A stretch of DNA of 64,000 bases, taken from NCBI GenBank assembly GCA_903896505.1, contig CAITXU010000002.1:13500-77499 (forward strand). The letters are read 5' to 3'. Below are positions 7,348 through 59,542 of the stretch, one piece after another (position 1 is the first letter of the stretch; every line of letters starts with the position of its first letter). The position numbers were made by a program, and so were the translations under genes. Source of the DNA: an uncultured Verrucomicrobiota bacterium (GTDB taxonomy: Bacteria > Verrucomicrobiota > Verrucomicrobiia > Limisphaerales > UBA9464). The notes below the pieces were generated by a model. It worked only from the letters and a program-made list of their open reading frames with translations. It ran no database searches and was not told where the DNA came from.

Positions 7348-8406
7348 ATGCGACAGGCACGCTTGAAGTTGGATTCCTGTGTGGGAGCAGCGTACTACCA
7401 TTGCATCTCGCGGGTGGTGGAGCGGCGTCTCGCGTTTGGACCCAATGAGAAGGAGCAGTTTGTCCATTGGATGCAGGCGTACGCCGGGTTCTGCGGGGTA
7501 CGGGTGCTCACTTACTGCATCATGTCCAATCACTTCCATCTCCTGGTGGAGGTGTCTCAGCGTCCGGAGGTTCTCCCGGGGGATGAAGAGCTGTTGGGAC
7601 TCTATGCCCTGGTCCATGGGGACGATGCGGCTGAGAGTCAGCGCAAGCTGATGGTGAACTGGCCGGAGGAACAACGGCAGCAGTGGCGTACAGGGTTGTA
7701 CGCACAGATGTGGGATGTGAGTGCCTACATCAAGCTGCTCAAGCAACGGTTCACCCAGTGGTTTAACCGGTGGCATCGGCGCAAGGGCACTTTGTGGGAG
7801 GAACGCTTCAAGAGCGTGCTGGTGGAGGGGTCACGAGATTCCCTGGCCCGGGTGGCGGCGTACATCGACCTCAATCCGATTCGAGCCCGATTAACTGATG
7901 ACCCCAAGGAGTATCGCTGGAGTGGGTATGCCGCTGCGGTGGCGGGGTTGCGGGTGGCCAGGGAGGGGATTCGGGGCATCATCGACCCGAGTGACCGGGA
8001 AGAAAGCAATCTGACCGCGGCGATGGCCCGGTATCGGCTTTGGGTGTTTGGGGAAGGAATGACCGAAGGGGTTCAGGGAACCGATGGCCCGGCCATTCGG
8101 GCCGGGATATCTCCGGAGAAGGTCAAGGAAGTGTTCGCCCAGAAGGGAAAGCTGGGCTGGGGGGATTATGTCCGGTGTCGGGTGAGGTACTTTACCGATG
8201 GAGCGGTGATTGGCAGTCGGGGATGGGTGAATCAGGTCTTTGAAGACCATCGCCAGCGGTTTGGACCCAAGCGCAAGGATGGGGCGAGGCGGTTCAAGTT
8301 CCTGAACGAGGCTGATATCTTTGGGTTGAGGGACCTGAGGATCGATTGCGTCGTGATTTCTGGCGGGACCAACTCTACCTCACGGACAGCAAAGACCCCG
8401 GACTAA
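7348..8406 (+). CDS. IS200-like / REP-associated Y1 (HUH) tyrosine-transposase-domain protein with a ~150-aa C-terminal extension
   Basis: 'YHCISRVVERRLAF' is followed by the HUH motif 'MSNHFHLLVEV' and the catalytic-Tyr helix 'AAYIDLNPIRARL'. I found no terminal IS structures, so this looks like a single-copy, domesticated-type gene. Confidence 0.75.
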   Translation: MRQARLKLDSCVGAAYYHCISRVVERRLAFGPNEKEQFVHWMQAYAGFCGVRVLTYCIMSNHFHLLVEVSQRPEVLPGDEELLGLYALVHGDDAAESQRKLMVNWPEEQRQQWRTGLYAQMWDVSAYIKLLKQRFTQWFNRWHRRKGTLWEERFKSVLVEGSRDSLARVAAYIDLNPIRARLTDDPKEYRWSGYAAAVAGLRVAREGIRGIIDPSDREESNLTAAMARYRLWVFGEGMTEGVQGTDGPAIRAGISPEKVKEVFAQKGKLGWGDYVRCRVRYFTDGAVIGSRGWVNQVFEDHRQRFGPKRKDGARRFKFLNEADIFGLRDLRIDCVVISGGTNSTSRTAKTPD

Positions 8407-27212: not shown

Positions 27213-29609
27213 GTGAACGTCATTCCCTCCCTTTTCATTGTCGCCCCGCTGCTGGGTGCTGTTGCACTGGCGCAAGACCCGGTTCCTCCTGCTGCGACAG
27301 TCCCTCCAGCCTCAGCCAGTCCGGCCGCTGCACCCACGAATGCCGTGCGTCCAACTATTGGCCCCAACGTTCCTGGCCCCGGTATCGCTCCCCGCCGTCC
27401 TTCTCCCGTCAATCTGCCGGGTGCCCGGCCCCTGGGGGCCTCCGCGACCAATGGTGTAGCCGGGCCCGCGGCATTTCCTGGTGCCGCCCGCCCTGGGACC
27501 CCGGGGCGTGTTGGAGCACCCACAGCTCAACCACCGGCCAATGATCCGCCTGCGGCCGCAGCCAATCCCACCGGGGATGGAACAACTCCAGCCGCCACCG
27601 ATGATGATCCCAATGCAGACGGGCAGGACATCATTGAATTCCGCAAGATGGACCTGAACCAATTTCTGGACCAGTACTCGGAGGTGGCCAAAAAGACGGT
27701 TTTGCGGGGGCAGGGACTGCCAACGCCGCAAATTGATTTCAAGCCGGTCACCAGCCTCAGCCATGACGAATTAATCCAGATATTTGACACAATTCTGGCG
27801 CTCAACGGAGTGACCATCGTTCCCACCAGCGAAAAGGTGGTGCTGGCGGTTCCTACGGCCCAGGCCAGTCAAGAGGGTGAGCCGTTCAGCAAAATCACCA
27901 GCTCGACGAATTATCCGGAAGCCAGTGTGTATACGACGCACATTGTTCAGGTGAAACACATGGCGGTTGAGGAGGCCGCTGACCTCTGCCGACAATTCGC
28001 AAAAAATCAGAATGGAATTATCGGTCTGCAGTCCGCCAAGACGCTCGTCATTCGGGACTACGCCATCAACGTCAAGCGGATGCTCGAAATGCTGGCCAAG
28101 GTCGATGTCGTTCCTGAGCAAACCTACGAACTGGAGGTCATCCCCATCAAATACGGACGGGTCGAAGACATTTATTCAACGATGAGCGCGGTCATCGGGG
28201 GCGGCGGTGGCGCTGGATTTGGCGGGGCGGGCGGCGTGGGGATGGGGCGCACCGGTACAGGCGGTGGCTTTGGCGGCGGGGGCGGTTTTGGACGAGGCGG
28301 CTTGGGGACATCGGGTGGGGTTCGGACGGGTGGTCTCGGAGGGGGCTATGGAACCGGTGGGTATGGTGGAGGCTATGGCACTGGAGGTTATGGTACCGGA
28401 GGAGGCGGTTACGGGACCTATTCCAACGAAGGGTTCACTCCGGTGGGACCTTCCGAATCCGGTGCCATGAGTCCGATGCAGGCCGCGCCCGCTGTCCGGA
28501 CAACGCCTGGGGCTCCCGCGGGTGGTGGAACCTTTGGCCAGCGGTACAATTCAGCCAATCGCACCGGGGCGGGACAACGGGGCGATGTAGAACCGTTGGT
28601 GGGCGATGCCCAAATCACACCCGACATGCGCGGCAATTCCCTGATCGTCTATGCCAATAAGAAGGACATGGCGACCATCAAGAGGGTGCTTGAGAAAGTG
28701 GACACCTTGCTTCCTCAGGTTCTGATCGAGGGGGTGATTATGACCGTGGATTTGTCCAAGGGACTCGATTGGTCGGCCAGTGCGGGTCAAAGTCCCAAGA
28801 CTTTTAACAGTAGTCCCAAGGTCGTCGGCGGTGGAGTGGTGAACAATCCGAGCAAGACCACGCCGCTGAATTCACTGAGTTTCCTGACCAGTGCCGCCAC
28901 CAATTTTCCTGCGTCCAACGGCTTTGGCTATGTGGCTCAAATCGGCAAGAACTGGAATGCCGTCATCAATGCGGCCGCCAGCGATTCGCGTACGGAGATC
29001 ATCCAACGGCCCCGGATCATTACCTCGCATGCCACGCAGGCCGAATTCTTCGTGGGCGATTCCATTCCCTACCGGCAGGGCGGCTACAGCTACGGAGGTT
29101 CGGAGAGTTATACTTATTCTTCGCTTCCCGTCGGTATCCGGCTGTCGGTGCAGCCGTACATCACCCCGGACGGATTGGTGGTCATGCAGGTTCAGCAGTC
29201 CATCGACAGCGTGGTGGGAACCGTCGACACATCCACGGGCGTTCCGCCCCAGACCTCGCAAAAAAGCGCGAATTCCGTGGTTTCGGTCATGAGCGGCGAT
29301 GCCATTCTCCTGGGCGGCTATATCAACAATCAGCGGGGCCGGGCCAGCTCCGGGGTTCCATTCCTGAAAGACGTTCCGCTCCTGGGATACTTGTTCAAGA
29401 CGGACAATCAATCCTCATCCAAGAGTGAGTTGATGGTTTTGATTCGCCCGACCGTACTCGTCAGTCCCCGCGAGGCGGCGAAACTGGCCGAACGCCAACA
29501 GCATGAGAGTGGGGACATTCGGGAGTTGGAAATCAACTTTGAGAATCAGGAAAAGGCCTCGCGTGAAAAGGCGGCCAAGCTGGATAAAAAGAGTGGCTGG
29601 AAAAAATAG
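27213..29609 (+). CDS. Secretin (GspD/PilQ family) with Pro/Ala-rich N-terminal linker and internal Gly-rich insert
   Basis: N-domains 'DFKPVTSLSHDELIQIFDTILALNGVTIV' and 'NSLIVYANKKDMATIKRVLEKVD' precede the secretin core. The core reads 'TEIIQRPRIITSHATQAEFFVGDSIPY' ... 'GVPFLKDVPLLGYLFK...SELMVLIRPTVL'. The start is GTG. Confidence 0.9.
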   Translation: MNVIPSLFIVAPLLGAVALAQDPVPPAATVPPASASPAAAPTNAVRPTIGPNVPGPGIAPRRPSPVNLPGARPLGASATNGVAGPAAFPGAARPGTPGRVGAPTAQPPANDPPAAAANPTGDGTTPAATDDDPNADGQDIIEFRKMDLNQFLDQYSEVAKKTVLRGQGLPTPQIDFKPVTSLSHDELIQIFDTILALNGVTIVPTSEKVVLAVPTAQASQEGEPFSKITSSTNYPEASVYTTHIVQVKHMAVEEAADLCRQFAKNQNGIIGLQSAKTLVIRDYAINVKRMLEMLAKVDVVPEQTYELEVIPIKYGRVEDIYSTMSAVIGGGGGAGFGGAGGVGMGRTGTGGGFGGGGGFGRGGLGTSGGVRTGGLGGGYGTGGYGGGYGTGGYGTGGGGYGTYSNEGFTPVGPSESGAMSPMQAAPAVRTTPGAPAGGGTFGQRYNSANRTGAGQRGDVEPLVGDAQITPDMRGNSLIVYANKKDMATIKRVLEKVDTLLPQVLIEGVIMTVDLSKGLDWSASAGQSPKTFNSSPKVVGGGVVNNPSKTTPLNSLSFLTSAATNFPASNGFGYVAQIGKNWNAVINAAASDSRTEIIQRPRIITSHATQAEFFVGDSIPYRQGGYSYGGSESYTYSSLPVGIRLSVQPYITPDGLVVMQVQQSIDSVVGTVDTSTGVPPQTSQKSANSVVSVMSGDAILLGGYINNQRGRASSGVPFLKDVPLLGYLFKTDNQSSSKSELMVLIRPTVLVSPREAAKLAERQQHESGDIRELEINFENQEKASREKAAKLDKKSGWKK

Positions 29610-29662
29610 TTCTCCGGTCCTGCGGACTGCACATTGGCTTCGCCCGTGCGGAGGTGGGCCTG

Positions 29663-29934
29663 GTGTCGTGTATCCGAAATAGCTTACAGTTTGTTGCGCC
29701 TAAAAGGCCCCAGGGCGCGGCCCGAGGAGGGAGCATACCCGACAGCGGACTGTGACCGACGAGAAACGAAGCCCTGGGGAATTTATGGCGCAACCCGAAG
29801 GGCCGCTGCTCTTTTCGGCCCCCGCTTCGTTGCTCGCTCCTCACAGACCACTGCGGGTATGCTCGTCGCTCGTCGCCTCGCGGGAGCCGAAAATCCCTAG
29901 CGGCAAACTGTAAGCTATTTCGGATACCCCACAC
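29663..29934. repeat. ~270-nt imperfect palindrome (foldback/MITE-like element) with 23-nt perfect terminal inverted repeats
   Basis: TATCCGAAATAGCTTACAGTTTG at 29671-29693 pairs with its exact reverse complement at 29904-29926. Internal arms also pair: GAGCATACCCG...CTGTGA with TCACAG...CGGGTATGCTC, and CGAG.AACGAAGC with GCTTCGTTGCTCG. The element lies between convergent genes. Confidence 0.8.
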
Positions 29935-30087
29935 TAGTCTTTCACCTCCAAAGGCTCGACAGGAGCCTCGCTACCAATGTGGCTAATATCCAATAAGTGA
30001 CATCGATAATTCATAAGGCAATGGTGGGACGAACCTCCTGGTGAGCCGCGGCGGTTCGGATCGCCTCAGATGTCACCCATGGTCGGT

Positions 30088-30591
30088 TCATTGTGCACCT
30101 CCTCCGGCTTCAACGGTTGGAGATCTCCGGTTGAGCCCGATCCGGATGGCCAGTCCAACGAAAACAAGGCCGGCTATAGCTCGAATTCCACTGTGGGCGA
30201 ACACCACGGCACCCTGAAACCACAGAAAAGCAAAGACACCGCGCAAGACGATTCTCGGAGTGGAGTTCTTACTATTTCCGTCCGTGTTCCACCAGCGTAT
30301 GGCGTCAACGCTCCAGAGTGTTAACATGGCGTAATTGATCCAAACGCCTCCACCCCACCGCCATCCGGTGACGGAGGCGGTCTGTTCAGCAGTTGCGACC
30401 ACAGCAGACGAGTGGCTCCAATGATGGTGCCATTGAAACGCCGCGGCCAGGTGGAGACCGAGGGCGGCAACACCCAAGGTCCAAAACAGACGCGCTCGCG
30501 CGGTTTGCCGAAGAATGAGGGCATTCTCGGCACCAGCCCAGAGAGCGAAGGCCGCCCAGGCGGTCCAATGGGCAATGTCGGTGCCGGTCAT
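30088..30591 (-). CDS. Hypothetical integral membrane protein (about 4 TM)
   Basis: Hydrophobic, Trp/His-rich segments are present (AHWTAWAAFALWAG, LGVAALGLHLAAAF, GVFAFLWFQGAVVF, AIAGLVFVGLAI). No family recognised. Confidence 0.5.
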   Translation of the reverse strand: MTGTDIAHWTAWAAFALWAGAENALILRQTARARLFWTLGVAALGLHLAAAFQWHHHWSHSSAVVATAEQTASVTGWRWGGGVWINYAMLTLWSVDAIRWWNTDGNSKNSTPRIVLRGVFAFLWFQGAVVFAHSGIRAIAGLVFVGLAIRIGLNRRSPTVEAGGGAQ

Positions 30592-57518: not shown

Positions 57519-58421
57519 ATGGATGTCTTCGTCAAATTCTGGGGAACCCGGGGTTCCATTCCGACCCCTGGCGAGCACACCCATCGGTTTGGCGGCAACA
57601 CGGCCTGCATCGAGATTCGCCACGAGGAGACTCTCATCATTTGTGATGCCGGTTCGGGCATTCGTGAGTTGGGTGAAGACTTGTTGACCAGGTCAAATCA
57701 ACCGATTACGGGGCACCTCCTGTTCAGTCATTGTCATTGGGATCACATTCAAGGTTTCCCATTCTTCTCGCCCGCTTACCGTCGGGAAAATCGATTTTAT
57801 ATTCACGGTCGGCACCCCGGGGATGATCGCTTCTACCGTCTCCTTTCGGGGCAAATGGAGTCGGATTACTTCCCCATTGGATTTCAGGCTCTTCGGGCCG
57901 AAATCAGTTCGTCGGATTTGGAAACGGCGGGCAACAAGATTGGCCGCGTCCAGGTCCGATGGATTCAACTGAAACACCCCGGGGGATGTCTGGGATATTC
58001 TCTTCAGGTGGATGCAGTGAAGGTCGTCTATTTGACGGATTGCGAAGTGCCGATTCCCGCCGACCGGCCACGCTCAGAATTGCGGCCTATGCCTCCGGAA
58101 TTGGTGGAGTTCGTCCGAGGCGCCGACCTGTTGATCGGTGACGGTCAGTATACCGACGACGAATATGCGGACCGCTCGGGATGGGGACACTCGAGTTGCT
58201 TTACGGTGGTGGATTTGGCCGTTCAAGCGACCGTTAAACACCTTGCCTTATTTCACCATGATCCTGCCCGTACCGATTTTGAACTGGATGAATTGGTGGA
58301 TGCCTGCCGGGTTCGGATCGAATCCCACAGAAGCACCATGACGGTTACCGCCGCCCGGGAGGGGGTGGAGTATCGGTATGCAACCACGGAGATTCCTATG
58401 GGTGTCGAATCGGGCCACTAG
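57519..58421 (+). CDS. MBL-fold metallo-hydrolase
   Basis: 'FWGTRGSIP' is followed by the metal motif 'LLFSHCHWDHIQGFPFF' and the later 'LFHHDP'. The start lies 2 nt after the FHA gene stop. Confidence 0.8.
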   Translation: MDVFVKFWGTRGSIPTPGEHTHRFGGNTACIEIRHEETLIICDAGSGIRELGEDLLTRSNQPITGHLLFSHCHWDHIQGFPFFSPAYRRENRFYIHGRHPGDDRFYRLLSGQMESDYFPIGFQALRAEISSSDLETAGNKIGRVQVRWIQLKHPGGCLGYSLQVDAVKVVYLTDCEVPIPADRPRSELRPMPPELVEFVRGADLLIGDGQYTDDEYADRSGWGHSSCFTVVDLAVQATVKHLALFHHDPARTDFELDELVDACRVRIESHRSTMTVTAAREGVEYRYATTEIPMGVESGH

Positions 58422-58455
58422 TGTCGTGTATCCCAAATGGCTTACAGTTTGCCGC
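58421..58455. repeat. Solo copy of the terminal motif of the 29.7-kb foldback element
   Basis: GTGTCGTGTATCCCAAATGGCTTACAGTTTGCCGC matches the left terminus at 29663-29693 in 29 of the first 31 nt. Confidence 0.75.
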
Positions 58456-58456
58456 G

Positions 58457-59542
58457 ATGGCCGGTTCTGATATCCTTTTGGTCGTGCGAGCATTATTTGG
58501 GGCCGGGTGGGCGTTGTCCTTGGCATTTTCCGCCTTGGCGGCCGAGCGGACCTTCGACTGGAGCACAGAAGGTGAGGGAAAGTTGCCCGAAGGGTTCCAT
58601 TCACGGTTGACCGGAAGTGGAAAGACAGGGGACTGGAAAATCGTTCGCGACGAACTTCCAACCGAATTCAAACCGTTCAATACCAACGCCGTTTCCATCA
58701 ACCGCTTTCCCGTGGTTGCCCAGGTTGTCCCCTCCAACGAGGATGAACGGTTTCCTCTGCTGATGTTTGATGAAGAGGTTTACGGGGATTTGACCTTTAC
58801 CGCCCGAATCAAAGTGATTTCTGGAGCCTTGGAGCAGATCGCCGGATTGGTTTTTAGATCGCAAGATGAACGGAATGGCTACGTCGTTCGAATCAATACC
58901 CTCGATGGAAACGTTCGATTCTATAAATTCGTCAATGGCGTTCGGTCCAATCCCATTGGGAAGGACTATCCACTCAAAAAAGGGCAGTGGTATCAGCTCT
59001 CCGTCAACTGCACCGGTAATAAGATCAAGGTCTTATTGGACGGAAAAGAGGCCATCCCGGAATTGACGGACAACAGTTTCACCAAGGGGCATATCGGATT
59101 CATCACCAAGTCCGATACTGTGGCCTATTTTTCCGATGCCCATGTCACCTACCGTCCGCTGGAGATGCTCGCAACAAAACTGGTGCGGCAGGTGGACGAA
59201 CTCCAACCCCGGCTACTGAATTTTCGAATCTACGGTAAGACCGCTTCCCGGCCCGACTTGCACGTCCTCGCGGCCAAGATCAGCGCCGATGCCGGACGTG
59301 CAGCGGATGCCACCGAACTGAAGGTCTTTTCCGAAAACCGGATGTATTACGGAAAAGACAACGGAGATGGGGTGGTCACCGCGCCGCTCCACGACCGGAA
59401 TGGTGAAACCATTGGTGTCGCCAAGTTTTTCTTGAAATCATTTCCGGGCCAGACTGCCGCCAATTCCATTGGACGTGTCGTGCCCACATTGCATGAAATT
59501 GAGAAACAGGTTGGTTCGGCGGACGACCTGGCGGAAGAGTAA
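58457..59542 (+). CDS. Secreted hypothetical protein, N-terminal DUF1080/LamG-like domain plus unassigned C-terminal domain
   Basis: The signal peptide is MAGSDILLVVRALFGAGWALSLAFSALAAE. 'GDWKIVRDE', 'IAGLVFRSQDERNGYVVRIN' and 'KGHIGFITKSDTVAYFSDAHV' are typical of the DUF1080 jelly-roll. I chose the ATG at 58457, after the repeat. Confidence 0.55.
   Translation: MAGSDILLVVRALFGAGWALSLAFSALAAERTFDWSTEGEGKLPEGFHSRLTGSGKTGDWKIVRDELPTEFKPFNTNAVSINRFPVVAQVVPSNEDERFPLLMFDEEVYGDLTFTARIKVISGALEQIAGLVFRSQDERNGYVVRINTLDGNVRFYKFVNGVRSNPIGKDYPLKKGQWYQLSVNCTGNKIKVLLDGKEAIPELTDNSFTKGHIGFITKSDTVAYFSDAHVTYRPLEMLATKLVRQVDELQPRLLNFRIYGKTASRPDLHVLAAKISADAGRAADATELKVFSENRMYYGKDNGDGVVTAPLHDRNGETIGVAKFFLKSFPGQTAANSIGRVVPTLHEIEKQVGSADDLAEE

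Follow-up and report, generated by a model that had tools for sequence, protein, structure and literature searches.

The stretch of DNA analyzed here, referred to as the window, is 64,000 nucleotides long. The gene for a GspD-type secretin (27213-29609, plus strand) ends at 29609, and the stop of a conserved 167-amino-acid open reading frame (ORF) encoded on the minus strand (30088-30591) lies at 30088. These two genes converge, as the first-pass annotation of the locus had stated, and a foldback segment occupies the spacer between them. Two ORFs had been predicted across the segment (29634-29900, plus strand; 29533-29934, minus strand) and described as mirror images of each other. Both ORFs exist, and the description is true in a loose sense, the similarity between the two being weak (41% identity over 34 amino acids). 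Neither ORF inside the palindrome was assigned to a family in a Pfam search, and we judged both to be spurious by-products of the palindrome.

The full-length segment spans 29660-29937 (278 nt), with the minus strand in the orientation common with the consensus of the repeat family described below. This span includes a bounding tetranucleotide on each side, CTGG (a mutated CTAG) at 29660-29663 and CTAG at 29934-29937, such that the element proper covers 29664-29933 (270 nt) if CTAG is a duplicated target and 29662-29935 if TA alone is duplicated. Its ends consist of a terminal inverted repeat of 34 nt, of which the window-left arm lies at 29660-29693 (plus strand, including the bounding tetranucleotide) and the window-right arm at 29904-29937 (minus strand, including CTAG); the window-left arm is presumed to be a transposase-binding end. 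The two arms show 91% complementarity, with 3 mismatches and an exact core of 23 nt. The 23-nt perfect repeat had been annotated at 29671-29693 (+) and 29904-29926 (−), and this 23-mer (TATCCGAAATAGCTTACAGTTTG) is indeed exact at both positions, with 0 chance matches in 100 shuffles, the repeat in fact reaching 34 nt.

A second, sub-terminal inverted repeat (24 nt, 83%) lies within the segment, where an outer arm at 29693-29716 (+) pairs with an inner arm at 29771-29794 (+); in the consensus of the family, it corresponds to a helix of 24 pairs (helix 6). An internal 14-bp stem couples TTTTCGGCCCCCGC at 29812-29825 (+) to GCGGGAGCCGAAAA at 29880-29893 (+), and in the family alignment this stem (helix 3) is 98.6% paired across copies. 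The mutual complementarity of the internal halves, noted in the first-pass annotation, was thereby borne out. A comparison of folding energies with those of shuffled sequence, also proposed there, was carried out on a 291-nt region. Predicted energies were −157 kcal/mol for the plus strand and −163 kcal/mol for the minus strand, compared to approximately −104 and −109 kcal/mol for the shuffles, corresponding to z scores of −10.0 and −10.3; 0 of 200 shuffles folded equally well.

A small hairpin (GGCTC-GACAG-GAGCC, 29953-29967) had been described as following the foldback segment. It is present, but it belongs to a separate conserved non-coding block that lies outside the element, directly to its right (29953-30065, plus strand), and that begins with this hairpin. 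The block is 79 to 81% identical to an unrelated locus (L014:1289-1401) and is absent from the orthologous spacer of two relatives (L022 and L023). Imperfect inverted arms about 26 nt long are present, a hairpin fold was obtained for the L014 copy with a z score of −4.3 on the minus strand, and no Rfam match was found. It may constitute a second small foldback repeat family.

Further copies of the foldback element were sought in public collections. A genome scan, which used one genome per species and a terminus query with two degenerate positions allowed, returned 3 loci in two uncultured Verrucomicrobia metagenome-assembled genomes (MAGs), while 15 loci came from a metagenome scan, one lake metagenome contributing 11 of these. 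From both scans, a total of 17 related loci was assembled from Verrucomicrobia MAGs and lake metagenomes. An exact match to the 23-nt terminus at L004:461-483, on an AT-rich metagenome contig otherwise without similarity to the element, is probably a chance match given the size of the collection. The copy count suggested in the first-pass annotation thus yielded additional copies at unrelated loci in related genomes and metagenomes, and the sequences flanking the family loci are unrelated to one another.

Four of these loci (L005, L009, L010, and L018) carry full-length, two-ended copies of 271 to 277 nt. The copy at L018:2844-3120 is 92% identical to that of the window, and the other three are 84 to 88% identical; a profile of the family matched the window copy over the whole model (E = 1e-93). 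The element is short (270 to 278 nt) and without coding potential, and its 34-nt termini are the best-conserved part across all copies of the family. Three additional loci hold two-ended derivatives with internal deletions, of about 90 nt at L012 and about 85 nt at L013 and L017. The sequences at L013:240-324 and L017:1394-1478 share an identical form of about 85 nt and an identical deletion junction at unrelated loci with different flanks; therefore, the short form itself was copied to new sites. The L013/L017 junction falls at a shared ATAC, and of one terminus only about 11 to 13 nt are left; mobilization may thus require no more than a very short end, or the deletion may have recurred at the ATAC microhomology. 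One-ended copies were found at L001, L002, L003, L008, and L016, each with a different break-point followed by unrelated sequence, and solo termini were found at L011 and at 58418-58460 of the window, so that one full copy and one fragment lie within 64 kb. The remaining copies (L006, L007, L014, and L015) are cut off by contig ends.

The first three genome matches each comprised one terminus and the same arm of about 165 nt, which suggested an RNA gene on one arm only (an omega-RNA, an IS end, or a 5′ leader); this candidate was rejected when full two-ended copies turned up. The scan pattern demanded TTACAG and was biased against the other arm, which reads TTGCAG in most copies, and the asymmetry of the truncated copies (5 of 5) is an ascertainment artefact of this requirement. 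L001 was also considered as an orthologous locus and set aside, as the 167-amino-acid ORF adjoining it encodes an unrelated protein, AIR carboxylase.

All two-ended copies conform to the arrangement CTAG-TGTCGTGTATCC...GGATACACGACA-CTAG or to a version in which the tetranucleotide differs by one base, as on one side of the window copy (CTGG), and no direct repeat longer than the tetranucleotide was detected outside the ends of these copies. CTAG occurs 25 times in the window compared to 237 expected occurrences, an under-representation of about 9-fold, and its presence at both ends is meaningful because CTAG is strongly avoided in the genome. Other tetranucleotides depleted in the window are TATA (0.21), GTAC (0.40), and TTAA (0.43). 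At two sites, L018 and window 58419-58421, the CTAG includes the TAG stop codon of the upstream gene; some further CTAG sites of the window (e.g., 982, 2134, and 11822) are located at the 3′ ends of ORFs. As rare CTAG sites often overlap TAG stops, copies would be expected to land at gene ends and in intergenic spacers.

Because CTAG is palindromic, the flanks fit a TA duplication inside CTAG and a 4-bp duplication of CTAG equally well. Both types of target use have precedents: IS630 was described as inserting at TA within CTAG (Tenzen and Ohtsubo 1991, according to the passage in PMC2170065 that cites it), IS5 gives CTAG direct repeats (PMC10379815), and the IS5-derived MITEPsy1 of Pseudomonas syringae inserts at CTAG (or YTAA) with duplication of the tetranucleotide (PMC3189936). 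In principle, the flank pattern is also compatible with a non-duplicating enzyme that cleaves at CTAG. From the sequences of filled sites, a duplication of TA or CTAG would appear the same as a CTAG that forms part of the ends.

The fragment at 58418-58460 (+) is made up of CTAG, the terminus of 34 nt, and the initial 9 nt or so of the interior, and it matched the family profile with an E value of 2e-9, agreeing with the family consensus at 41 of 43 positions. A third terminus had been annotated at 58421 and taken as an argument for mobility. The terminus is real, its position being slightly different (58418-58460, with the 23-mer at 58429-58451 and 2 mismatches), and the argument is supported, as this is a truncated family copy that abuts CTAG. 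Its CTAG contains the TAG stop of an MBL-fold gene (57519-58421), it ends at ATG 58457 of a DUF1080-type gene, and it fills the whole 35-nt spacer between the two. The spacer of the closest orthologue (L028, 93% protein identity) likewise opens with CTAG but goes on with unrelated sequence, the terminus proper being absent; L028:1797-1846 rejoins the window at a 14-nt sequence, GTTTGCTGCGAGGG, shared with the inner end of the terminus (1 of 2,000 shuffles). The more distant orthologues L030 and L032 displayed no significant similarity to the 58418-58460 terminus. An ancient remnant common to all orthologues was considered for this solo terminus and rejected, since only L028 has the 14-nt sequence at a significant level. 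We infer that a copy may have inserted at the 58418 CTAG in the lineage of the window and was mostly lost later, possibly via recombination at GTTTGCTGCGAGGG. The predicted start of the DUF1080-type gene is ATG 58457 in the window, where the remnant ends, but a downstream ATG in L028; the remnant may have reshaped the 5′ end of this gene.

At the locus of the full-length copy, L022 and L023 have the same gene order as the window, with a secretin that is 95% identical at the amino acid level and 84% identical at the nucleotide level, and the convergent 167-amino-acid gene is kept. The spacer between the two genes measures 190 nt in L022/L023 and 478 nt in the window, a difference of 288 nt that is near the 274 to 278 nt of the element, and no trace of the element was found in the L022/L023 spacer by BLAST or with the family profile. 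The remaining spacer of L022/L023 is too diverged for base-by-base alignment, and the comparison therefore establishes absence, not an exact empty site. A base-exact empty site was likewise not recovered elsewhere: contigs of near-identical strains break, as does L027, and the P0004 contig ends early. Among the near-identical strains, contigs L024 and L025 stop inside the element, L026 stops short of it, and the P0001 contig ends just before it; the contig of the single close relative at the L018 locus, L027, likewise breaks. Such breaks are the usual behavior of a multi-copy repeat in short-read assemblies. The right junction of the window copy is also present in the independent assemblies L024 and L025.

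Overall, we conclude that 29660-29937 is very probably a non-autonomous DNA transposon, a miniature inverted-repeat transposable element (MITE) about 270 nt in length. Of the two readings offered in the first-pass annotation, that of a MITE or foldback mobile element is supported by the dispersed copies, the deletion forms that spread, the CTAG bounds, the assembly breaks, and the absence from the orthologous spacer. The annotation had also named an outcome that would speak against mobility, namely no further copies together with conservation at orthologous loci; the opposite was observed. A transposase acting in trans would bind the 34-nt ends and insert the element at CTAG. This enzyme would be either IS630/Tc1-mariner-like, with a TA duplication inside CTAG, or IS5-like, with a 4-bp CTAG duplication. 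The window copy itself is probably an ageing one that is no longer mobile, because one of its bounding tetranucleotides has become CTGG instead of CTAG and there are 3 mismatches between the terminal repeats.

Genes for such an enzyme were sought in several settings. No DDE transposase was found among the approximately 55 ORFs of the window that were scanned with Pfam, nor was a transposase gene bounded by these termini found in the window, beside truncated copies, in viral contigs, or in plasmids. The ORFs adjoining truncated copies are housekeeping genes. Scans of viral contigs for the element itself were empty, and neither the plasmids, where a distant BLAST search gave one chance match, nor the literature searched contained a match to a known element; a full-text literature search returned nothing relevant on the terminus sequence or on MITEs in Verrucomicrobia. 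The family is apparently an undescribed MITE family of a freshwater Verrucomicrobia clade.

Two explanations other than a mobile element were weighed. The first is that the palindrome arose by chance or, the window being probably a metagenome-assembled contig, through faulty assembly, e.g., as an inverted chimeric join. Chance does not account for the 23-mer, however; in independent assemblies, the right junction recurs together with the first 37 to 94 nt of the element, and four other full-length copies have the same architecture on other contigs. We assign this explanation a negligible probability, and the other copies and independent assemblies already refute it. The second concerns a primary function for the host, with the element acting as a structured RNA, a bidirectional terminator, or an mRNA-stabilizing hairpin and the other repeats being paralogous copies; the first-pass annotation had entertained the first two of these as its alternative reading. 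On both strands, very stable folding is predicted (z of about −10), the element lies between convergent genes both here and at L018, and some compensatory changes keep the pairing. Bacterial MITEs such as Correia, ERIC, and RUP affect transcripts. Against such a primary function, the orthologous spacer of L022/L023 lacks the element, and the copies occur in varied contexts, also as truncated or deleted fragments. The global foldback is, moreover, not conserved in the subfamily formed by L005, L009, and L010. In these copies, another sequence stands in place of the segment that pairs with the left interior, leaving a terminal stem with two separate hairpins, and the single long foldback is therefore not a trait of the family. 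Searches for known RNA features gave no Rfam match, either for the whole window at gathering thresholds or for 29500-30200 at E ≤ 1, and no tRNA or tmRNA with ARAGORN. Inside the element, no sigma-70 promoter or intrinsic terminator consensus was seen, and no T-run follows the hairpin. The alternative in the first-pass annotation was thus not upheld, as Rfam matches, terminator or promoter consensus, and conservation at the orthologous locus were all absent, and we regard it as highly unlikely that the element is primarily a functional element of the host. With the segment read as a MITE, any influence on its neighbors, for example if a hairpin came to lie at the 3′ end of each convergent transcript, would be incidental.

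A minor oddity concerns the arms of the copies, which co-vary beyond expectation. In an alignment of the five full-length copies, 6 of 99 consensus pairs have changed on both sides with pairing kept, compared to 1.4 ± 1.0 in shuffles, of which 0 of 500 attained the observed number; slid controls gave 0 to 2 double-sided changes. Two of the co-varying pairs are in the terminal repeats, at columns 17/262 (C-G to G-C in the window copy) and 22/257 (A-T to C-G in L009), and the window copy has a perfect A-T where most copies have an A-C mismatch. A plain cut-and-paste model does not require such co-variation. Possible causes are the existence of separate master copies, the two ends of each following a single transposase variant; correction of one arm by the other within a hairpin or cruciform; and selection on a single-stranded hairpin. 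Five sequences are too few to separate the three. The maintained complementarity of the arms, including the pairs 17/262 and 22/257, would fit a hairpin element moved as single-stranded DNA by a Y1/HUH tyrosine transposase, that is, an oversized REPIN or "TIRtron"-type element whose CTAG is not duplicated. Tyrosine-transposase genes tied to terminal-inverted-repeat families have been described (PMC3733652), a RAYT-like Y1 gene lies in the same window (7348-8406), and, with a palindromic CTAG, filled sites would look alike under Y1 and DDE models. Opposed to this are termini that carry CTAG and are not self-complementary GTAG-tagged REP units, and a Y1-like gene that lies 21 kb away, flanked by neither these nor any other inverted repeats. 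Terminal inverted repeats of 34 nt together with a flank that is palindromic and symmetric form a classic DDE signature, and co-variation of the ends is also expected if both track the DNA-binding specificity of one transposase variant. We therefore consider movement by a Y1/HUH enzyme unlikely. It seems similarly improbable that the concerted change of the arms reflects, beyond shared ancestry, propagation or maintenance as a single-stranded hairpin, be it through an HUH transposase, such as the product of the RAYT-like gene in the window, or through arm-to-arm correction. A DDE mobilizer of the IS630 or IS5 type is the more likely, if unproven, option.

The RAYT-like gene (7348-8406, +) encodes a 352-amino-acid protein with an IS200-like Y1 domain (PF01797, E = 2e-11) and matches the REP-associated tyrosine transposase model NF047646 with an E value of 7.5e-13, under the family cut-off. 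Around 7348-8406, neither flanking inverted repeats nor REP-like units were detected, and nothing there resembles the MITE; a link of the MITE to this gene was rejected on these grounds. Short palindromes tagged with GTAG or CGTC and flanking a RAYT gene, by which REP/REPIN systems are defined, are found neither in the element nor around this gene.

Several known systems invite comparison. Correia (NEMIS) and ERIC/YPAL elements are 100 to 300 nt in length, have terminal inverted repeats, form long hairpins, are intergenic, and exist in full and internally deleted forms. No cognate transposase is known for them. The element described here resembles them in size, terminal inverted repeats, hairpin folding, intergenic siting, and deleted forms, although the sequences are unrelated and the phyla differ; RNA-level effects (processing, promoters) have been shown experimentally for Correia/ERIC elements. 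Correia/ERIC-type elements are listed as a group in PMC3733652. With REPINs, REP-RAYT systems, and the "TIRtrons" of the same source (PMC3733652), the element shares the capacity to form hairpins, the maintained complementarity of the arms, and a RAYT-like gene in the window. Compared to a REPIN, however, it is much larger, its arms are not GTAG-tagged palindromic REP units, and no copies of the repeat flank the Y1-like gene.

MITEs derived from IS630/Tc1-mariner transposons, such as RUP of Streptococcus pneumoniae and Nezha of cyanobacteria, are likewise small and non-coding, with terminal inverted repeats of about 25 to 35 nt, and likewise multi-copy and mostly intergenic; they insert at TA. 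The preference of IS630 for TA in CTAG, as cited in PMC2170065, fits the arrangement C-TA-[element]-TA-G at every complete copy examined here. In contrast to these systems, no IS630-family transposase with matching ends was found in the present case, and compared to RUP, Nezha, and IS630, this element occurs in Verrucomicrobia and has two nested hairpin modules, with a single long foldback in one subfamily. The CTAG-[element]-CTAG pattern fits the CTAG duplication of the IS5-derived MITEPsy1 equally well (PMC3189936, PMC10379815). MITEPsy1 is 100 nt long with 18-nt terminal repeats starting with GGAAGG, whereas the terminal repeats here are 30 to 34 nt and start with (C)TAGTGTCGTG; no IS5-type partner was found.

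The segment is thus best read as selfish DNA of an ordinary kind, and not as a gene for a dedicated RNA or as a terminator. A new mechanistic question arises only if the co-variation of the arms reflects single-strand hairpin transposition; if that were true, Verrucomicrobia would harbor a REPIN-like element of 270 nt, and neither this size class nor this phylum has been described for such systems. For annotation of the locus, the two overlapping ORFs predicted within the element should count as spurious, and the element accounts for the breaks of short-read assemblies of this lineage at this point. The family could be usable as a strain-level marker. It also illustrates how transposon targeting of a strongly avoided CTAG is funnelled to stop codons and gene ends.
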